Virus record (IMG/VR): IMGVR_UViG_3300050154_000155
Strand: one strand, 5' to 3'
DNA length: 42,771 nucleotides
Source: a virus
The translations under genes and the position numbers were made by a program. Shown piece by piece: positions 9,914-42,771 of this stretch. Below the pieces are notes generated by a model. The model saw only the letters and a list, made by a program, of their open reading frames with translations. It had not been told where the DNA came from and made no database searches. The stretch's first letter is position 1; each line of letters opens with the position of its first letter.

Positions 9914-10516
9914 ATGTCAATCTTCAGAAGAGGTGCTGTCTGGTACGCGAGTTTCTCGCTCCCAGGCGGCAAAAGAATTAAAGAGTCTTTGCAAACAGAG
10001 AACAAAAGGGAGGCTCAAGAGTTACATGACAGACGAAAATCCGAACTGTGGCGTATAGACAAACTTGGCGAGGCTCCCAAAGTCACTTTTGATGAGGCGT
10101 GCTTGAGATGGCTAGAGGAAAAAGCGCACAAAAAATCGCTAGATGATGACAAAAGCCGGATCACATTCTGGCTTAATCATTTTGAAGGGGTATTGTTGAA
10201 CGATATAACTGAATCAAAGATTTATCTAGCAGTAAGCAAAATGACTAATCGTCGACATGAAGAAAACTACCGACTTAGTGCGGAATCTTTGATAAGAAAA
10301 GGAAAAGAACCACCCAAGTTTATTCCAAAGGCTGCGTCTGTCGCAACCAAAGCGACGCACCTTGCTTTTATCAAATCCCTGCTTCGTACGGCAGAGTTTG
10401 ATTGGAAGTGGCTTGAAAAGTCACCAATTATCAAAGTTCCGCAACCAAAAAATAAGCGTATCCGCTGGCTGGAAATGGCTGAGGCTAAGCGTTTAATTAA
10501 TGAATGTCCAGATTAG
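9914..10516 (+). pseudogene. int: Tyrosine integrase remnant: the N-terminal arm-binding and core-binding part only (200 aa); the catalytic domain is missing
   Basis: [21 protein letters not shown]...[18 protein letters not shown]...[29 protein letters not shown] closely parallels Rac IntR-type integrases (about 400 aa) as remembered. It stops exactly where the R..HxxR..Y catalytic domain should begin. No continuation exists in any frame. Confidence 0.8.
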
Positions 10517-24656: not shown

Positions 24657-25685
24657 TTACGAATATTGCACACTAAGAATGGTAACAGCCTCTGGACGGA
24701 TTGCCCAGCCAGGGGTAGTACGCATTTCAGATACGATATCAATTGCCCCACCAGGAAGCGGAGTAGGGATTTCACGCGGTGCGGCCATGTCCGACAACAT
24801 TAACGCGGTAGCTTCTAAACCAGGTTTCAGTGTGGCAAATTCGTTGGTGTTAATTGGCGAACCTTTCGGTACTTTAATTTCAGGGATCACGATAACAATT
24901 GCATCGGTGCCCCCTGAGCCTTGCCCAATCAGAGTATCGTCATACGCGAAAATTACCTCACCTTCACCAGACTGTTTGACCTGTTCTTTAATAACCTGCC
25001 CTACAGTTGAAGTGCCCGCGCCTGCCCGCTGATATTGGGTCAATTGTACAATGGCCTGCAATTCCAGTTGCAGCAATGCGCGTTGTGGTCCCAAAATCAC
25101 AACCAAATTTTCCTGACCGGATTGCATCATACGCACTTTTGACGCTACGATTTGACTTAAAAACCACTGTTCGAGCTGGCCGTTATCATAAGTCACAAGC
25201 GTAGTGTTGCCGTTGCTGTCGGCGGGTAGCGTTGCCGTAGTCGCGCCATTTGTATTCAGCAAACCTTCGCCATTACTGCCGGTGATACCATACAGCAACG
25301 CATTGCGCATCTGCTGAAAAATAGCCTGGCGTGAACCCAATCGATACGCTTCAGGCAATGCAACGTTATAATTAGCCGCCGCTGCGGTATCGTGCTGGTC
25401 ATACTCAGAACGGCAACGATGCAAATACGTCGGGGTAGAACGATAGCCCGCATCCAGTGTTACCGACGGCAATTGATTGCCGTTAGCCGCCTGACTATTG
25501 GAAACATTGGTACGGATATCTAACGTTTTAATGTACACATATAAATCACCAGCACCCAAACGTGGCATTGCGTCACCCGTGGCTAACACTTCAAACGCGC
25601 CGGATGCCTGCTGGTAATTCATGATTAGTTCGGGCATCATAAACGATGGCTGAACTACCGGAAAACTGGGGAAAATTGCTGCCAT
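24657..25685 (-). CDS. Major capsid protein
   Basis: 342 aa. It follows the scaffold and decoration-like genes and is followed by a terminator. It resembles the DUF2184-type capsid proteins that accompany DUF2213-type scaffolds (from memory). Confidence 0.65.
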   Translation of the reverse strand: MAAIFPSFPVVQPSFMMPELIMNYQQASGAFEVLATGDAMPRLGAGDLYVYIKTLDIRTNVSNSQAANGNQLPSVTLDAGYRSTPTYLHRCRSEYDQHDTAAAANYNVALPEAYRLGSRQAIFQQMRNALLYGITGSNGEGLLNTNGATTATLPADSNGNTTLVTYDNGQLEQWFLSQIVASKVRMMQSGQENLVVILGPQRALLQLELQAIVQLTQYQRAGAGTSTVGQVIKEQVKQSGEGEVIFAYDDTLIGQGSGGTDAIVIVIPEIKVPKGSPINTNEFATLKPGLEATALMLSDMAAPREIPTPLPGGAIDIVSEMRTTPGWAIRPEAVTILSVQYS

Positions 25686-25697
25686 TGTCGATGCTCC

Positions 25698-26564
25698 TTA
25701 AATGACCAAAGTACACGCGTTACCGTTAACTACCCAGTTTGCGTAACCTGTTGATGCGTTATAATTCACAATTTTACTGTTACCCTGCTGCGCCCCGATG
25801 ATACTGACCGGCAATGCCAGCGCTGCTGCAACGGTGGCTGAAGGTGCGGCAATCGTACCCGCTGCGCCTAAGCCTGGTGAGACAGGGGTTGTGATTGGGT
25901 TATAGGTGAACGCGGTAGTTGATGTTACTGACAGCACTTGCACTGTGCCGTTGTAGTTAGTGTCGATCGTAATACCCGCAATTGTTACATAATCGCCCAC
26001 TGACAGTCCATGCGCTGAAGCGGTGGTGATGGTTGCAATATTAGTCGAGGAGACATAACTCGCTGAGGAAATCGACACTGACTGCGCACCGCTATGGTAC
26101 GTGTCAATGCATTGGCCGGTCTGTTGCCACACCAAATTACCAGGGGCGACACCGTTCGCTAATTGCGCGATAACAGCGTTGGTACATGCAAAATTGATAC
26201 GCGCCTTACTACCGATACGATAGTAGCCAATACTCATGCCTGCCATGTATGCGGGAACATTCGATTGCGGCGTTACCATGCCGTTAGAACCCTGATCAAA
26301 TACGCTAAAACCAGTGATCTGATTGTATTGCAACGCACGTTTAATATCGTTGCCAATACCGATAAGGTCTAATTTCGGAATTTCCTGAATTGCGATACCG
26401 CCAAACATTGGCAGCGTTTCAGTAAGTGCTACACGGCCTGCCACCAGCGAATTACGGATCGCTGGATCGTCCATGGTAACACCCTGATACAGACCATCGG
26501 ATTTGACGCCGAAAAAGCCAGCGGCATTGCTAACAGTCATGGGATTAATGTTAATACCGGCCAT
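25698..26564 (-). CDS. Capsid decoration/auxiliary head protein with an inserted beta module
   Basis: 288 aa, between the scaffold and capsid genes. It contains IATITTASAHGLSVGDYVTIAGITIDTNYNGTVQVLSVTSTTAFTY. Confidence 0.45.
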   Translation of the reverse strand: MAGININPMTVSNAAGFFGVKSDGLYQGVTMDDPAIRNSLVAGRVALTETLPMFGGIAIQEIPKLDLIGIGNDIKRALQYNQITGFSVFDQGSNGMVTPQSNVPAYMAGMSIGYYRIGSKARINFACTNAVIAQLANGVAPGNLVWQQTGQCIDTYHSGAQSVSISSASYVSSTNIATITTASAHGLSVGDYVTIAGITIDTNYNGTVQVLSVTSTTAFTYNPITTPVSPGLGAAGTIAAPSATVAAALALPVSIIGAQQGNSKIVNYNASTGYANWVVNGNACTLVI

Positions 26565-26566
26565 AA

Positions 26567-28186
26567 TTATTTATTCCCCGCAAAAGTGGCACGACGTGCC
26601 GGTAATTTCCATGGGGCAAACGCAACACTTGGGTCACCGTGGAATTCACTGATTAAACGCCCAGTTTGATCGGCGCGACGCACTTCGCGTAAATTGCCTG
26701 CCCCAACCGCATCAATGCTAGTGGCATTAACTTGCGCGTCGGTGTAAATGCGCTCTTCGGCCATTGCCAACACACCACTGTTAGTGATTGAAGCAATGTC
26801 AATATCTTTAGCGCGTGGCGAATATTTCTGATATTTCAAAGCAAGACGTTTACGATAGGCCAATGCCGATTCACCGCGTTGTGCCATAGGTGCGCGTTCG
26901 CCGAATAAATTAGCCACGCTGTCGGCGCGGATTTGCGCATCGGCAATGGCGTTTGCTTCTTCGGGTGCGACTTCTGCGGTCTGTGCGTCGACACGGGCTT
27001 TTAATTCGCTCATTTCGTTACGCAATTTTTCTTCAGCGTCGGCATTCAGAGTTGGCTCAGGCATCGCACCGGCTGGGGCAACTGGCGGCACACCTTCGGG
27101 CTGAGCATCTTTTTGCAACTCGGATTCTTTATTTTCAGCGCCTTCCAATTTGGTGATACGCCCGCCCAATTCGTCGAGTTTACTCAAAATCTGCGATAAC
27201 GGATCGGCGGCGGGTGGTGTCGCGCCAGGTTGAGCGTCATTTTTCAACGCATCTTCTTTCTTATCTTCTGGTTCCATAATAACCTCATTTTGCAAAATGC
27301 CATCGGGTGCGCCTAATTTATCCCACACACCATTCGGAACTATGGCAATGTGATCAATCAATGTAGGCTTACCCTCAATTATAACCGGTGTACCATCAAT
27401 ATTAACCGCATTTTCGGCAATTGTTGAGGTTATTATTGACGGACTGGTACTCATTTGCGCATTTGCCAATATCTTAATTGTGTCGGCGTCATATACTCGC
27501 GCAATTGCCCATACGTCACTATCAACAATATACGCGTAAATAGTCGTCCCAACAATTTGATCTGAAAAACTTGCGTCGCTTAACATTCCTTTTTCGGGGT
27601 GTATGAAAATTACGGGCAATCCTTTGCACCGTTCCAGGAAATCAGCCGTGAGATAATTCTCAGGCACCCTGTAAGCATACTCGTTTTTACTGCCCCGCCA
27701 TGTTACGCCTGTACCGGTTATACGCAACGCATAAAGCATCATGTTGCTGTACCATTGGGGCGATGTTAACGCACCGCTGGCGATGTATTCTGCGCATTGC
27801 GTGTCGCTCATTGGGTCGCTGCCAAGTGTGGCAATTAACCCAGGGTGACAATTGTCGGGCAATGCGTCGCGCTCGAACCAACCCCATTCGCTAGACTCGT
27901 CTGAAATTATGGCGTCGGGTGCGTTATTAATTTTAACGCTATACGTGACAAAACCGTCAATGATAGAACGCGGCGTGAGAATATCAGGGGAAATCCCATC
28001 AATGCCGGTTTCCTCGAATAATTCCCGAACAGCGGCGACTTGTGGAGACTCGCCCGCCTCGATGTGCCCGCCTGGGATTGACCATTCGTTAGGGTGATCC
28101 TGCTGTTCACCGCGTTTTAATAGTAATATTCCTTTTGGGCTGGTAATCAAAATACCTGCTGCAAATGTATTAATTGGCTCGTTCAT
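26567..28186 (-). CDS. Nudix hydrolase domain fused to a prohead scaffold/protease-like (DUF2213-like) protein
   Basis: 539 aa.
- Residues 40-62 (GHIEAGESPQVAAVRELFEETGI) are a perfect Nudix box, GX5EX7REUXEEXGU.
- Residues from about 150 to 300 (ALRITGTGVTWRGSKNEYAYRVPENYL...LPVIFIHPEKG...IDHIAIVPNGVWD) look like DUF2213.
- Residues from about 300 to 440 are a Pro/Ala/Glu-rich coiled coil. Confidence 0.7.
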   Translation of the reverse strand: MNEPINTFAAGILITSPKGILLLKRGEQQDHPNEWSIPGGHIEAGESPQVAAVRELFEETGIDGISPDILTPRSIIDGFVTYSVKINNAPDAIISDESSEWGWFERDALPDNCHPGLIATLGSDPMSDTQCAEYIASGALTSPQWYSNMMLYALRITGTGVTWRGSKNEYAYRVPENYLTADFLERCKGLPVIFIHPEKGMLSDASFSDQIVGTTIYAYIVDSDVWAIARVYDADTIKILANAQMSTSPSIITSTIAENAVNIDGTPVIIEGKPTLIDHIAIVPNGVWDKLGAPDGILQNEVIMEPEDKKEDALKNDAQPGATPPAADPLSQILSKLDELGGRITKLEGAENKESELQKDAQPEGVPPVAPAGAMPEPTLNADAEEKLRNEMSELKARVDAQTAEVAPEEANAIADAQIRADSVANLFGERAPMAQRGESALAYRKRLALKYQKYSPRAKDIDIASITNSGVLAMAEERIYTDAQVNATSIDAVGAGNLREVRRADQTGRLISEFHGDPSVAFAPWKLPARRATFAGNK

Positions 28187-28973
28187 TTATTTTCGCCGCC
28201 CCTTTTTTAGTGAGCATATCGCTAGGCAATTTGCGCAAGGAATAAACATATTGCAGGAAACAACGGCAAAACACCTCTTCGCCTGGCTGAGTAATTTGAT
28301 CTAAATAGCCCGCAGCGCCTGGCTTAACCAATCCTTTATTTTGCGCCCAACTGCCGCGTATCAGATACATTAAATCGTCACGTTCTTTGTGATCTGGCCG
28401 ATAGTTGTAACCTGGCTGGCGATAATGACTATGCCAGATTGCTGCAATTGCGCCGCCATCTACAGCAATGACTTGATTGAGCGCGGCAATGAATTTATGT
28501 CCTTGGTCAATCTCTAAACGATTCTTTTCATAGCGAATTGTGGCAATGTCTTTATAAACGCTTGCGGCATCCTCGGTCACGTTAAGCACACTGCTGCCGC
28601 CGTCCGGTACTGATGATGCCCAGCCGGAAAAACGTTGCAACGTGCGAGCTGTGGCCTGTGCTTTATTGAGCTTGATTAGTTCGGTCGCCGCGTAAATTCG
28701 CTTGTCTAGTTCATTCTGCAAGCGTGGGCGCATTTGTGTAAGCTGAAATCGCGTCACTTCAGGGTGATATTGCAGAATTTTGCCGTCATTAATTTTGACA
28801 TTGAACAGCGAACGCAAATATTTAACGAGCGATTCGGGGTCGACGTCCAAGTGATAATCTAACAATTCGCGTAATTTTGGCATCCAGTATTCCAGGCGTA
28901 TTTGGCTATACCCGTTGCGTTTAAAGTCGCTCATGGCCTCGCGCAGCATATTGTAAAATCTAACGGTTATCAT
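28170..28973 (-). CDS. Minor head morphogenesis protein (Mu F / SPP1 gp7 family)
   Basis: 267 aa, directly after the portal gene. It carries the family-typical C-terminal PGEEVFCRC motif. Confidence 0.6.
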   Translation of the reverse strand: MITVRFYNMLREAMSDFKRNGYSQIRLEYWMPKLRELLDYHLDVDPESLVKYLRSLFNVKINDGKILQYHPEVTRFQLTQMRPRLQNELDKRIYAATELIKLNKAQATARTLQRFSGWASSVPDGGSSVLNVTEDAASVYKDIATIRYEKNRLEIDQGHKFIAALNQVIAVDGGAIAAIWHSHYRQPGYNYRPDHKERDDLMYLIRGSWAQNKGLVKPGAAGYLDQITQPGEEVFCRCFLQYVYSLRKLPSDMLTKKGAAKINERAN

Positions 28974-30379
28974 AGTGTTTCAACTCGCGGATCGGGCGTT
29001 TCGGCTGGCGCTGGTGGCTGGTACGCTGCGAGCGCTTGGATATCCAGTACCAGTTTATTTTTAAACAGCTTGTTCGCTTCGTTTAAATTATTCATCGCCC
29101 ATTCGAGCAGTGCCGCTTTATTTTCAGGGTCGAGATTCGGCAGCATGACTTCCAGCATACTGGTAACCGCTTCAAATTTAATTTTATCGACTTCAACTTG
29201 TTTACTCTCCGGTTCGATTAAATAGCTCGGCCAAGTAAATTCAAACGCATTACACCACTGAGCATACGCAGTTGCATAGGGAACATTCGCTAAATCGGGG
29301 TTACTGGCTTGAATCGTTGCGTAAAACTCTTCTGTCCAGGCGCGCAATTGAACGATACGGATAAAAAAGTTATACAGCGGTTTCCAGTCGGCGCGGAGTC
29401 CATCAATATACGATGCGACACTTTTTGCATCTTCTGTGCCCTCGCCGAACCCGCGCGTAAACGTTTCGGAATTTAGCATGATTGCAGGCATATCGGCAGC
29501 TGCGGCAATGTCGGCCAGTACGTGCTGGCGGGCGCTGTCCATTGGCTGCTGAAGGTTAGTTAAATCAATGCTTTCGATGCTGTCCTGTGCGCCAATTTGC
29601 ACCACGTCGCCAGTTTTACCCTGTCGCAAAATAATACGCTTGATTTTACTGATACCTTCGGCCACCGCATTAGCCATAGACGTTTGTGAAAAGATTTTAG
29701 CGATGAGCATGCCACATTTAACCAGCACATGATTATCGGTGCGCATGCCCTGTACAAAGGATTTAAGCGGATATAATGCCCGCTGATATACGCTACGCCC
29801 CGTGTAGCCATAACCGGATTCGGTGTAGGCCAGATATATCCCCGACTCGTTTTGCAACGTGCAGGTTCGCCCTGCTGCGTATTCTGTGCCAGCCGTGCGA
29901 ATTGTGTCATGTTTAAGAAAGTCCGGCGCATTAGGATTAATATTGCATATCATCGAGCCGGCAACGTTGAGCGGGTCCCATACGTTAAAGGCCAGCGCCG
30001 GATCGCGCCATTGTTCAGTAGTGAGCGACTGATTATTTGCAGTGCCTGGTACAATCGCCCCTGTCGTACCGTGCCCGTAAATTCTACTTAACCGAACGGT
30101 TTCGGCAATGACATTATCAGCCCCCAGCGAGTCCCATTCATCCCAAAACGCTTTTACAACTAAATCGGACGGGGCGTTTTTCACCGTGATCAGCGGTCGC
30201 TGTGATTGTCCCATGCGGATCGGGCGATCGACCATTTTTCCGCCAAGCGGGTGATACAAGTAAATGATTTTGCAGGTTTCGTAACTCGTGGGCGTACCTG
30301 GTTCGATGTCTACCGATTCCAGAACATCCATTAATTTACTTTTCGCTTCGCTCTGCGTTTGTAGATCCAATAGTGCCAT
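28970..30379 (-). CDS. Portal protein
   Basis: 469 aa, immediately downstream of the large terminase gene. ATGA overlap with the Mu-F-like gene. Confidence 0.65.
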   Translation of the reverse strand: MALLDLQTQSEAKSKLMDVLESVDIEPGTPTSYETCKIIYLYHPLGGKMVDRPIRMGQSQRPLITVKNAPSDLVVKAFWDEWDSLGADNVIAETVRLSRIYGHGTTGAIVPGTANNQSLTTEQWRDPALAFNVWDPLNVAGSMICNINPNAPDFLKHDTIRTAGTEYAAGRTCTLQNESGIYLAYTESGYGYTGRSVYQRALYPLKSFVQGMRTDNHVLVKCGMLIAKIFSQTSMANAVAEGISKIKRIILRQGKTGDVVQIGAQDSIESIDLTNLQQPMDSARQHVLADIAAAADMPAIMLNSETFTRGFGEGTEDAKSVASYIDGLRADWKPLYNFFIRIVQLRAWTEEFYATIQASNPDLANVPYATAYAQWCNAFEFTWPSYLIEPESKQVEVDKIKFEAVTSMLEVMLPNLDPENKAALLEWAMNNLNEANKLFKNKLVLDIQALAAYQPPAPAETPDPRVETL

Positions 30380-30381
30380 TT

Positions 30382-31674
30382 TTAGAATCCTGCGCTGTTG
30401 CCTAATGCAATAGCCACGCCATAGTTAAATGTATCGAACAAATCGTCAGCCTGGTCTTTTTCCCCGATGACGAATTGCAGCACCTGGTAGAGAAAATGAT
30501 TTTTAGACTGCGATTTATACGTTGTGATTTTATTATACGCGAACTCGGATATTTTCACCTGTCCGCCAGCGACATAGCCAGAAATGTTGATAGCCCGCGA
30601 TTCTTTGCCAATGCTGGTCATATCGCTATCGATCGCGTAAACCGGCCAGCCTGAATTTTTACCCTGCTGTATCAGGGTAATACCGGTGGATTTATCTTCT
30701 ATCCAGGCACCGATAAAACCGTCACGGGCGCGACACATTCCGGCCAGGTCGCGCCCGTGATTTATCCATTGGGGCAACACGTCTTTTAGGAAATAACCAT
30801 CAATTTGGACAATTTCCCAGTCCAGGACAATTAATTTCGGGGTGGGAAAATTGGTCATGGCGAACCAGGTAACCGCGGTGCCGTCATTTGTCTCGCCTGA
30901 TTTAGCTGCGCAGTCGACAACCGCAAAAACATAATCGCAAATGATCGGATATTGTAGCGGTCGAAATTGCTCGTCGAGTAGCCATTCAGTTTTAAAGAAG
31001 TTTTGTCCGTTCCAGTTAACGAATTCGGCGCGATATTCCTGCTGTATGACAAGCGGCGATTTATTTTTAGTGAGGTCGTTATACGCGTCAATTGAAATTG
31101 CGGGATTAGCGATTGTGGGTGCCCAGTGGCGACGCCAGCCTAATTTCGGTTGATCCCAGGCGAGCCAGAAATAATTCTCATCGTTTATCCCCTTTGGCGT
31201 TCCGGCCATAATTGCGTCGCCGTTATAGTCAAGCAATGTTGGCTCGATAGCCTGTTCCCATGTGTCCTTTAAGCCTTTTTTGACAAGTCCCGCCTCGTCA
31301 ATTAGCGCCAGGTGATATTTACGCGAGCGCCCCGCATTTTCATCGTCGAGTGTCCAGAATTCAACTTTGCCGCCGGTTACAGTTTCTATAATCATTTCAT
31401 TTTTAGACGCGTAAGCAACGGCATTGCCTAGGAGTTTTTTTACCGCTTTATATGATGGCGTCATCAACTTGTAGGACGGGCAAAACCAGCCGACGAATTT
31501 ACCCGTACCCGAATTTAAAGCGGCTTTTTGTTCAAAATATGTGGTTTTGCCAAAGCGCCGCCCCGCTGCGATAATATCTCGCTTACTTAACGTCGACTCG
31601 ATCCGCAATTGCTCCTTGTGTAGGGGTTGCAATTGGATCGCGATATTCGATGTCCTGGAGGATTGGCGCACCAT
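30382..31674 (-). CDS. terL: Terminase large subunit
   Basis: 430 aa. Walker A is AAGRRFGKT, Walker B-like is LALIDEAG, and the C-terminal part is nuclease-like. An alternative TTG start after AAGGAG would shorten the overlap with terS. Confidence 0.8.
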   Translation of the reverse strand: MVRQSSRTSNIAIQLQPLHKEQLRIESTLSKRDIIAAGRRFGKTTYFEQKAALNSGTGKFVGWFCPSYKLMTPSYKAVKKLLGNAVAYASKNEMIIETVTGGKVEFWTLDDENAGRSRKYHLALIDEAGLVKKGLKDTWEQAIEPTLLDYNGDAIMAGTPKGINDENYFWLAWDQPKLGWRRHWAPTIANPAISIDAYNDLTKNKSPLVIQQEYRAEFVNWNGQNFFKTEWLLDEQFRPLQYPIICDYVFAVVDCAAKSGETNDGTAVTWFAMTNFPTPKLIVLDWEIVQIDGYFLKDVLPQWINHGRDLAGMCRARDGFIGAWIEDKSTGITLIQQGKNSGWPVYAIDSDMTSIGKESRAINISGYVAGGQVKISEFAYNKITTYKSQSKNHFLYQVLQFVIGEKDQADDLFDTFNYGVAIALGNSAGF

Positions 31675-40926: not shown

Positions 40927-41041
40927 AATACTAATTGGGGTATTTATTGTTATTTGGTTTATTGTCGAAACTGAAAACGCAATTATTAACATGCAATTGT
41001 TTGATGCTATTAATAGTTTGAATGAGGCGCTACGAAAATAA
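40919..41041 (+). CDS. Small membrane protein (40 aa)
   Basis: It is not in the track. It translates to MGKILIGVFIVIWFIVETENAIINMQLFDAINSLNEALRK. It overlaps both neighbours (ATGGGTAA and TAATG). Confidence 0.35.
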   Translation: MGKILIGVFIVIWFIVETENAIINMQLFDAINSLNEALRK

Positions 41042-41616
41042 TGGCTAAAAAGTATCGGTTAATTTATGCAGATCCCCCGTGGCAATTCAGAGATGAATGC
41101 CATTCGGGTAGCCGTGGAGCGGGTTATCATTATCCGTTACTTAGCGTTCGGGATATCGCACGGCTACCGGTTGAACAACTTGCTGATGATAATTGCATCC
41201 TGGCAATGTGGTGGGTGTATTCCCAGCCTGCCGAGGCGTTGCAATTGCTCGATGCATGGGGGTTTAGGCTCATTACAATGGGCGGATTTACCTGGGGAAA
41301 AATTGCCGAATCAACCGGTAATCCAGTATTTGGCATGGGGTCAACCAGTCGCGCTAATTCAGAATGTTGTTTATTTGCAGTGAAGGGCAAAATTAACAGA
41401 GAGTCGGCCAGCGTGTCACAACTGGTTCTCAGTCCGCGTGGTCAGCATTCAGAAAAACCGGCAATAGTGCGCGATAAATTAGTTGAGTTATTTGGCGACG
41501 TTCCGCGCATTGAATTGTTTTCGCGTCAAAAAGTCGAGGGTTGGGATCAATGGGGCAATGACGCCGAATCGCCAGCTCTTTTTTATCAGCCTGGTTACTG
41601 GATGGGTTTATCGTGA
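41041..41616 (+). CDS. MT-A70 family N6-adenine DNA methyltransferase
   Basis: 191 aa. Motifs: IYADPPWQF (DPPW), ...HYPLL..., ...GQHSEKP.... Confidence 0.85.
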   Translation: MAKKYRLIYADPPWQFRDECHSGSRGAGYHYPLLSVRDIARLPVEQLADDNCILAMWWVYSQPAEALQLLDAWGFRLITMGGFTWGKIAESTGNPVFGMGSTSRANSECCLFAVKGKINRESASVSQLVLSPRGQHSEKPAIVRDKLVELFGDVPRIELFSRQKVEGWDQWGNDAESPALFYQPGYWMGLS

Positions 41617-42546: not shown

Positions 42547-42771
42547 ATGAGTATTAAAATCGAGTTTGATGCAGATTTGTTAAATCGCAGGGAAATTAAA
42601 GCCCTGTCAAAATTCCTAGCCGTCCTGAATGGCGAACAGTGTGATCATTCATGCGCTACGCAAGACATTAAACACGTTGATGCCGGCCTTAACGACATCC
42701 CTAAAACTTTTGCCAAGCCCGAACCTATCAAATTGGGCGCTGATGGTGCGAAAGAATGTGGCCTAGAAGAC
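42547..42771 (+). CDS. 5' part of the junction-spanning gene (continues at base 128 of the window after removing the overlap)
   Basis: ATG at 42547. There is no stop before the window end, and it is in frame with 2..736. Confidence 0.7.
   Translation, partial: MSIKIEFDADLLNRREIKALSKFLAVLNGEQCDHSCATQDIKHVDAGLNDIPKTFAKPEPIKLGADGAKECGLED
42645..42771. repeat. Second copy of the 127-bp terminal direct repeat
   Basis: Identical to 1-127. Confidence 0.95.

Follow-up and report, generated by a model that had tools for sequence, protein, structure and literature searches.

The gene at positions 26567–28186, minus strand, of the IMG/VR virus record IMGVR_UViG_3300050154_000155 (42,771 nt; the whole stretch analysed, hereafter the window) encodes a 539-amino-acid (aa) head-assembly polyprotein, in which a Nudix hydrolase domain is followed by a candidate prohead protease and a scaffold. 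We give somewhat better than even chances to the reading in which the Nudix domain is cargo that is packaged in the head and delivered with the DNA. Its packaging in the head we infer strongly from the analysis as a whole; fusion to a carrier in the head interior is a hallmark of virion-packaged effectors, and such a fusion is found here. Judged by alignment, the gene is a new, divergent member (at most ~47% identity) of a catalogued family present in cultured phages. The parts of the gene are as follows, in order along the protein.

26567..28186, minus strand: full-length Nudix – prohead protease (DUF2213) – scaffold polyprotein gene, 539 aa, ATG start, no stop or frameshift
27821..28174, minus strand: Nudix hydrolase domain, residues 5–122 (Pfam PF00293, E = 8e-20; AlphaFold2 predicted local distance difference test score, pLDDT, >90)
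28001..28069, minus strand: Nudix box GX5EX7REUXEEXGU, G40–I62, read from the sequence
27806..27820, minus strand: ordered linker from Nudix to protease, residues 123–127 (pLDDT ~96 across the junction)
27287..27805, minus strand: prohead serine protease-like domain, DUF2213 / Pa193_gp24 family, residues 128–300 (Pfam PF09979)
27599–27601, 27443–27445 and 27350–27352, minus strand: candidate catalytic residues H196, S248 and H279, respectively, conserved in relatives
26867..27286, minus strand: Ala/Glu/Pro-rich, partly disordered helical scaffold region, residues 301–440 (AlphaFold2, composition)
27275..27286, minus strand: internal ribosome-binding site GAGG (27283–27286), 5-nt spacer and ATG of Met304 (27275–27277); the site reads aaaatGAGGttattATG
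26567..27277, minus strand: predicted nested scaffold protein Met304–Lys539, 236 aa, in frame, from the conserved internal start
26570..26866, minus strand: conserved C-terminal globular domain, residues 441–539 (pLDDT 89–97)

The protein is a single chain. One profile, phrog_6216 (‘unknown function’), covers residues 6–534 with E = 3.3e-146, and an AlphaFold2 model built on 97 homologues (mean pLDDT 84.8) lays the chain out as a Nudix domain (9–122), a linker (123–127), a second globular domain (128–300) and, further on, a well-predicted C-terminal domain (441–522). The initial annotation had read the gene as a single 539-aa open reading frame (ORF) with no stop or frameshift, and this holds: at least 12 contigs encode an identical product, and they come from several samples, including JGI samples 3300051223 and 3300053686 and runs SRR35796980 and SRR35797014. 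The same continuous ORF occurs in cultured phages, and more than 190 homologues carry the same fusion as well, which together rule out an assembly error. The annotation was equally right that no ribosome-binding site and ATG mark a joining point at M126. In the window this codon has no Shine-Dalgarno sequence upstream, the corresponding column in relatives is mostly Leu, and a Shine-Dalgarno core motif precedes 0 of the 14 start-type codons found there. A separate protease made from an internal start at M126 was ruled out on these grounds. Thus, no start is supported between the Nudix and the protease, and the Nudix is always translated within the long chain. The opposite view, in which an error in sequencing or assembly merged separate Nudix and protease/scaffold genes, or the Nudix part has a translation product of its own, could appeal to Nudix-less orthologues that start near residue 126 (Rac-SA53, L053, L054) and to phage Bm1, which has its own Nudix gene in the same slot. 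It is refuted by the independently assembled contigs, by the cultured genomes and homologues with a continuous ORF, and by a junction that lacks a stop, a start or a Shine-Dalgarno sequence both here and in relatives, and the probability we leave to it is negligible.

The Nudix part is apparently an active enzyme. The Pfam match spans residues 9–109 and scores 71.6 bits against a cut-off of 21.1, and the box, G40-x5-E46-x7-R54-E55-L-x-E58-E59-x-G61-I62, fits the consensus at every position, metal-binding Glu included, so that its description as a textbook Nudix box at nt 28001–28069 was exact. In the alignment of 97 homologues G40, E46, R54, E55, E58, E59 and E97 are invariant, and none of the 197 Nudix-bearing relatives has lost the RExxEE core. 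When the full-length model was compared with the PDB using Foldseek, the top 50 matches were all Nudix enzymes; for single-domain targets, the template modelling (TM) scores relative to the target were 0.55–0.68. By sequence and fold the nearest solved relatives are small, generic Nudix enzymes resembling MutT, NudG and Ap4A or Ap6A hydrolases. The occasional addition of an ADP-ribosyltransferase to the fusion, described below, hints at nicotinamide adenine dinucleotide (NAD) or ADP-ribose chemistry.

The domain at residues 128–300 is modelled as a candidate assemblin-like prohead protease with a fold like that of T4 gp21. A DUF2213-type head maturation domain had been placed at ~150–300 by the initial annotation, and the profile search bears this out, with a match to residues 169–286 above the Pfam cut-off (E = 3.4e-6, 27.6 bits, cut-off 22; the precomputed hit carries the flag ‘weak’), and residues 172–422 match PHROG 530, ‘head maturation protease’. 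Since a fold search with the full-length model was swamped by Nudix matches, residues 126–303 were modelled separately (pLDDT 89.4). The top 40 PDB matches of this model were exclusively T4 gp21 or herpesvirus assemblins, from Kaposi's sarcoma-associated herpesvirus (KSHV), Epstein–Barr virus (EBV), pseudorabies virus (PRV), human cytomegalovirus (HCMV) and herpes simplex virus 2 (HSV-2), and among the predicted viral structures of BFVD it matched DUF2213 proteins and prohead proteases, along with a further Nudix fusion equal to it in full length. H196 and S248 are present in 241 of 241 relatives and H279 in 240. The order His-Ser-His is typical of assemblins, and the ‘HP’ motif after H196 resembles the ‘NH85P’ of T4 gp21, whose catalytic residues we take to be H85 and S140. 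Comparison of the protease profile with T4 gp21 by hhalign detected nothing, and a PDB sequence search with the Nudix-less profile returned chance matches to low-complexity helices only, the solved fragment of the Pseudomonas phage Pa193 gp24 protein (see below) not being among them. Given the invariant Nudix residues and the His/Ser/His residues, both enzymatic parts appear to be selected for catalysis.

The initial annotation found no convincing internal start between the Nudix and the other part of the protein. This is correct, but it overlooked a conserved ribosome-binding site and ATG at Met304, which sits right behind the protease domain in an otherwise variable, disordered stretch. The column holds Met in 93 of the 97 homologues, with Val or Leu, codons for which can serve as alternative starts, in three of the others and Arg in one. 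The start was examined in 75 distinct ORFs from IMG/VR and GenBank loci, scoring the motifs GGAG, GAGG or AGGA at 4–16 nt upstream. Of these ORFs, 96% have a core motif ahead of the Met304-equivalent ATG. As controls, the motif precedes 5.3% of the 977 remaining in-frame ATGs of these genes (Fisher p = 3e-73), and 13% of codons of any kind within this Glu/Lys/Ala-rich region. Motif and ATG are 7–9 nt apart in 67 of 72 cases, and the upstream codons specify 39 different pentapeptides. From these comparisons, a nested scaffold protein of 236 aa is probably made from the internal start. The Nudix-less proteins PB1 gp22 (L091 5172–6569) and Bcep1 gp15 (L085 5670–7061) also have an in-frame ATG just past DUF2213, at Met182 in PB1 and Met199 in Bcep1, with GAGG or GGAG 8 nt before it. 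A nested scaffold product may accordingly be general to the DUF2213 family, the well-studied Pbunaviruses included.

The region behind the protease has the composition attributed to it earlier, Pro/Ala/Glu-rich over residues 300–440 (17% Ala, 14% Glu and 9% Pro). In the AlphaFold2 model it consists of disordered stretches (302–327 and 360–380) and helices (329–357, 382–403 and 408–427), with a helix-turn-helix at 382–427. The internal duplication reported along with the composition, LKNDAQPGATPPAA / LQKDAQPEGVPPVA, is present and short, with 8 of 14 residues identical, and is part of a wider recurrence of DA[Q/E] motifs. In the scaffold regions of the window protein and homologues P0002–P0120 these motifs average 3.3 per protein, where composition would predict 0.56; six are found in the window protein, at residues 317, 360, 383, 400, 416 and 483, and the forms KADA and AKADAE occur in most relatives. 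They may be protease cleavage sites or a coiled-coil repeat. The C-terminal domain, in which or next to which E439, Y444 and G517 are invariant among the 97 homologues, probably serves assembly or capsid binding.

The fusion is widespread. Searching 5.8 billion proteins yielded 725 homologues. Full-length fusions account for over 100 of them and come from metagenomes and from prophages of Serratia, Rahnella, Klebsiella, Citrobacter, Salmonella and Burkholderia. At least 594 related loci are present in IMG/VR. Among cultured phages the same fusion is found in the Klebsiella phages vB_Kpn_Chronis (gp4) and RothC/D, Pantoea phage PdC23 (pdc_04), five Yersinia vB_YenM phages and Shewanella phage vB_Sb_QDWS. 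These members of phrog_6216 (Chronis gp4, RothC/RothD, PdC23 pdc_04, the vB_YenM_29.18 type and vB_Sb_QDWS) have the same full-length architecture and gene order, down to a protein of ~290 aa downstream, and keep the internal Shine-Dalgarno sequence and ATG; they are ~40% identical to the window protein over residues 1–314, and the nearest homologue overall is ~42–47% identical, making the window protein a divergent member. In the deposited records these genes bear no label beyond ‘NUDIX hydrolase’, ‘hypothetical protein’ or ‘glycosyl transferase’, the last of these a wrong label carried by the Yersinia vB_YenM Nudix fusions (hits H8–H12). The Nudix-less orthologue in Rac-SA53 (L003 4995–6287) is labelled ‘TolA protein’ with the note ‘nudix’.

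Relatives of the protease–scaffold part were collected separately, using residues 126–539 as the query against 1.84 billion cluster representatives. With E ≤ 1e-3 there were 1,780 clusters, and with E ≤ 1e-30 there were 525. In the 150 top-ranking ones, an N-terminal extension of 100–199 residues is present in 84 and one of at least 200 residues in 9, and 55 have none. A Nudix domain is present in 77 of the 137 new representatives, and for 39 of the 54 Nudix-less proteins the nearest neighbour in the protease domain bears a Nudix. Presence and absence are interleaved in this way, which is the behaviour expected of accessory cargo. Gain or loss of the Nudix has occurred repeatedly, and assembly can do without it. 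The question raised earlier of whether relatives carry fused or separate genes can also be answered: the Nudix is fused in more than 190 homologues, and Bm1 and PQ43W carry the same Nudix clade free-standing.

Other domains occur ahead of the same protease/scaffold. An Alt/VIP2-type ADP-ribosyltransferase accompanies the Nudix in P0119 and P0188, a PBECR1 nuclease of the barnase/EndoU type replaces it in P0163, DUF5710 is found together with it in P0169, and further unassigned extensions are present in other longer relatives. Their domain matches indicate that the N-terminus of the protease/scaffold is a modular cargo position, a feature the initial annotation overlooked. In the longer fusions P0119 (~28–45) and P0088 (~138–155) a linker motif, DHPRxxxGxFGSGG, lies between cargo modules.

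The Nudix itself is one of a clade recognizable by shared LPxPLHP and DExxxxxW motifs (32–43% identity). Besides the protease fusions, the clade includes a domain attached to the C-terminal end of the portal of Burkholderia phage Bcep1 (gp18), a stand-alone protein between the MuF and DUF2213 protease genes of Bm1, and a stand-alone protein among the structural genes of Ralstonia phage PQ43W. The occurrence of one Nudix clade in three head-interior contexts argues for a link between its place of action and the capsid. A further motif, MPLKEGSS..ISxNIKTEIEAGKxxxQAxAI, is found at the N-terminus of some Nudix–protease fusions (P0118, P0073 and P0103) and recurs at the C-terminus of the stand-alone PQ43W Nudix (gp40; L086 3992–4519); it could be a targeting or interaction peptide.

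A mechanism can be proposed on this basis. Translation from the first ATG would give the 539-aa Nudix–protease–scaffold chain, and translation from the internal GAGG and ATG would give the 236-aa scaffold, identical to the C-terminal portion of the long chain. In lambda C/Nu3 and Mu I/Z, an in-frame internal start within the protease gene yields a scaffold that shares the C-terminus of the protease, and the two co-assemble into the procapsid, an arrangement like that of the nested start predicted here. In the same manner, a few long chains would co-assemble with many short ones inside the procapsid; co-assembly would follow from the scaffold part that the two products share, and would place the protease and the Nudix in the head interior. 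At maturation the assemblin-like His/Ser/His protease would cut the disordered scaffold region, and the folded Nudix, probably still joined to the protease by the short ordered linker, would remain in the head. The least certain step is the next one, in which the Nudix would enter the cell with the DNA through the contractile tail. Once delivered, it would hydrolyse a nucleoside-diphosphate-X compound ahead of any phage gene expression, candidate substrates being ADP-ribose or NAD-derived signals, dinucleoside polyphosphates, and NAD or Np4A RNA caps.

The best external support for the location of the carrier comes from Pseudomonas phage Pa193, whose gp24 gives PF09979 its current Pfam name, ‘Pa193_gp24’. 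Pa193 gp24 was found in mature virions by liquid chromatography–mass spectrometry, and cryo-electron microscopy placed its residues 286–326 as a helix-turn-helix on the inner capsid surface at the five-fold vertices; the authors did not distinguish whether the rest of gp24 is cleaved off or flexible (PMC11456595). With a DUF2213 member inside the capsid (PMC11456595), the proposal of the initial annotation that the Nudix is tethered to a protein bound for the procapsid interior was a sound inference. Strong members of DUF2213 include PB1 gp22 (E = 5.5e-29), which is the counterpart of gp24 in the related Pbunavirus PB1, as well as Bcep1 gp15 and the Bm1 protease. Pa193 gp24 and PB1 gp22 belong to the same Pfam family as the window protein and occupy the same slot between MuF-like and capsid genes, with the same layout of N-terminal DUF2213, acidic middle and C-terminal domain; the capsid-binding helix-turn-helix of Pa193 gp24 lies in the acidic middle, equivalent to the scaffold region here. 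Unlike the window protein, Pa193 gp24 has no Nudix, and it is called a scaffolding protein, not a protease, by its authors. Comparison of the Nudix-less profile with PB1 gp22 by hhalign gave a weak match (E = 0.007), in which the His and His motifs align.

Several observations weigh against packaging and delivery. Pa193 gp24 is the sole experimental anchor and is a distant, Nudix-less relative, as the hhalign E-value of 0.007 against PB1 gp22 indicates, and literature searches for a Nudix in virions, or for any study of DUF2213–Nudix proteins, found none. The fold matches to assemblins and gp21 have probabilities of 0.9–1.0 for many, with marginal E-values (5e-3 to 0.2) and TM scores of 0.37–0.49, and we know of no cleavage site for this DUF2213 protease family. 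The nested scaffold is predicted from sequence comparison, and the spacing of the Shine-Dalgarno sequence in the window is 5 nt, versus 7–9 nt in most relatives. No Nudix subfamily (MutT 8-oxo-dGTPase, ADP-ribose pyrophosphatase/NudE, NAD diphosphatase NudC or RppH) could be assigned, the best NCBIfam scores being 17–44 bits against cut-offs of 98–475. Prohead proteases and scaffolds also usually leave the head or are degraded at maturation, and the Nudix could go with them.

That last point is the core of another explanation, which we regard as unlikely, though a serious contender: the Nudix would act in the cytoplasm late in infection, or in the procapsid only, and would be lost with the scaffold at maturation and never delivered. 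It might then sanitize nucleotides for the phage DNA polymerase, or remove ADP-ribose, NAD-derived or ApnA alarm molecules, and the fusion would merely couple its expression or amount to the head genes. The location of the gene in a late structural operon, overlapping the MuF gene, fits this explanation, as do the MutT-, NudG-, Ap4A- and Ap6A-hydrolase-like character of the closest solved relatives, the phage's own DNA polymerase, primase and helicase, and the free-standing members of the clade in Bm1 and PQ43W. However, a cytoplasmic housekeeping enzyme gains nothing from a tether to capsid-interior proteins, members of the clade became fused to the protease and, independently, to the portal, and the same N-terminal position holds an ADP-ribosyltransferase or a PBECR1 nuclease, which are effector-type cargo. 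In addition, Pa193 gp24 persists in mature virions (PMC11456595). A role for the Nudix as a regulatory module of the protease, that is, a nucleotide-sensing or inhibitory pro-domain that times activation, for example by ATP/ADP or packaging status, is improbable. The short ordered linker and the high model confidence at the junction do suggest that the two domains pack together, and Nudix domains act as ligand sensors in NrtR-type regulators (cited in PMC9503650), but the metal-binding and catalytic residues of the Nudix are invariant over ~200 divergent relatives, which points to catalysis and not binding alone; moreover, 55 of the 150 top relatives have no N-terminal domain and presumably still mature their heads, and in some relatives a nuclease or extra domains replace or accompany the Nudix. 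Packaging as cargo with delivery thus stays our preferred reading. A broader version, in which the N-terminus of the DUF2213 protease/scaffold is a general cargo-loading adaptor of tailed phages and a pre-loaded Nudix destroys an immune signal, alarmone or RNA cap within seconds of ejection, is put forward tentatively, and we think it rather doubtful.

The initial annotation knew of no described scaffold–Nudix fusion; such fusions were in fact already to be found in Iyer et al. 2022, in phrog_6216 and in deposited phages. In the passage concerned, Iyer et al. 2022 described, from computational work, fusions of Nudix domains with a capsid-processing peptidase, with MuF and with portal, and suggested that the Nudix is packaged and injected and acts on NAD- or ADP-ribose-type substrates. 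Thus, the central idea of the initial annotation was already in the literature as a computational prediction. Both the architecture class and the hypothesis are the same as here, and the packaging hypothesis was reached independently, with the identity of that peptidase family to ours not confirmed. That passage, one sentence and a figure, is without the gene anatomy, the nested start, the conservation of catalytic residues or the frequency of the fusion in the DUF2213 family. What the present analysis adds is the nested scaffold start, the evidence on protease catalytic residues, the presence of a Nudix in over half of the close relatives, and the alternative effectors. In the KlebPhaCol preprint on the Chronis and Roth phages the Nudix is not mentioned.

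Other systems resemble this one in part. Lambda C is a ClpP/S49-type protease, and neither it nor Mu I has an extra N-terminal enzyme; in contrast to lambda C, the protease here is assemblin-like, an N-terminal enzyme is added and the nested product is predicted. The ADP-ribosyltransferase Alt and the internal proteins IPI-III of T4, and the Dar proteins of P1, are enzymes or anti-defence proteins that enter the head while it is being assembled, undergo processing by the prohead protease, and leave with the DNA to act at once. The likeness to Alt extends to those relatives of the window gene that carry an Alt/VIP2-type ADP-ribosyltransferase domain. T4 cargo is targeted by a short N-terminal capsid-targeting sequence that is removed by gp21, whereas the Nudix here is covalently part of the protease/scaffold chain. 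The small phage Nudix NudE.1 of T4 is active on FAD, Ap3A and ADP-ribose, but it is encoded by a free-standing gene outside the head module. By tblastn the window protein matches the nudE gene region of RB43 (88 residues aligned, 38.7% identity, E = 1e-6). Burkholderia and Ralstonia phages have Nudix proteins in their head modules that are nearer to the window Nudix than NudE.1 is. In the Bcep1/Bcep781 portal–Nudix proteins a Nudix of the same clade is carried on the portal C-terminus, and in MuF–effector fusions and polyvalent proteins an effector is likewise fused to a head-interior protein (Iyer et al. 2017, PMC5512222). The PBECR1 family is found in both the MuF/polyvalent and the DUF2213 settings. 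Unlike in the MuF/polyvalent and portal fusions, the carrier here is the maturation protease/scaffold and the cargo is N-terminal.

The genes around the fusion are those of a head module, in the order large terminase, portal, MuF-like protein, fusion gene, 288-aa protein and major capsid protein.

30382–31674: large terminase
28970..30379, minus strand: portal protein (phrog_146, E = 1.1e-46; the Pfam Phage_portal_3 match is under its cut-off)
28170..28973, minus strand: MuF-like head morphogenesis protein (phrog_324, E = 1.8e-21)
25698..26564, minus strand: 288-aa protein between the scaffold and capsid genes (phrog_6268, unknown function, E = 1.1e-51), possibly a decoration protein, a label that is unconfirmed
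24657..25685, minus strand: major capsid protein (Pfam PF09950, E = 4e-7; phrog_6671, phrog_264)

The slot assigned to the gene by the initial annotation was therefore right: it adjoins the MuF-like gene, whose 3′ end overlaps its start by 17 nt, and the capsid genes are on its other side. The 288-aa protein had no BLASTP similarity to gp23, the protein in the decoration slot of PB1. The phrog_6268 profile has just 211 positions, and the window protein has an extra segment of ~55 residues (173–227) that resembles repeats of tail-fibre and virion structural proteins; the PdC23 orthologue is annotated ‘endosialidase’.

Bases 1–127 of the window are identical to bases 42645–42771, and this exact terminal overlap of 127 bp indicates a complete, circularly assembled phage genome of ~42.6 kb. 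The phage has genes for a tail sheath, a baseplate and a tape measure, as well as for DNA polymerase, primase and helicase, and the sheath and baseplate genes identify it as a myovirus. A nucleotide search with 20 kb of the window found no match among deposited phages, and so the phage is new at the DNA level. Elsewhere in the genome, 8680–9456 (plus strand) encodes a homologue of queuine tRNA-ribosyltransferase (phrog_887, E = 7e-78), which may be a DpdA-like enzyme and would then suggest 7-deazaguanine modification of the phage DNA. A 200-aa integrase-family protein is encoded at 9914–10516 (plus strand; phrog_10426, E = 8e-98), in the same genome as the DNA polymerase, primase and helicase, an exonuclease and a Gp2.5-like single-strand DNA-binding protein. 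The DNA methyltransferase homologue at 41041–41616 (plus strand; phrog_359, E = 9e-91) aligns to profile positions 118–307 of 329 only, the C-terminal part, and the gene may be split or truncated.

For these genes a fitting annotation is prohead protease/scaffold with N-terminal Nudix, ‘NUDIX hydrolase’, ‘TolA’ and ‘glycosyl transferase’ being incomplete or wrong. The class is widespread, a Nudix being present in over half of the close protease/scaffold relatives, and its carriers include Klebsiella, Serratia, Yersinia, Pantoea, Burkholderia and environmental phages and prophages. The packaging hypothesis has been in print since 2022 and several cultured phages carry the gene. The nested-scaffold layout suggests a simple route for loading foreign proteins into phage heads. 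If the Nudix is indeed delivered with the DNA, it would provide a counter-defence or takeover activity that is independent of gene expression, like that of T4 Alt or IPI*.

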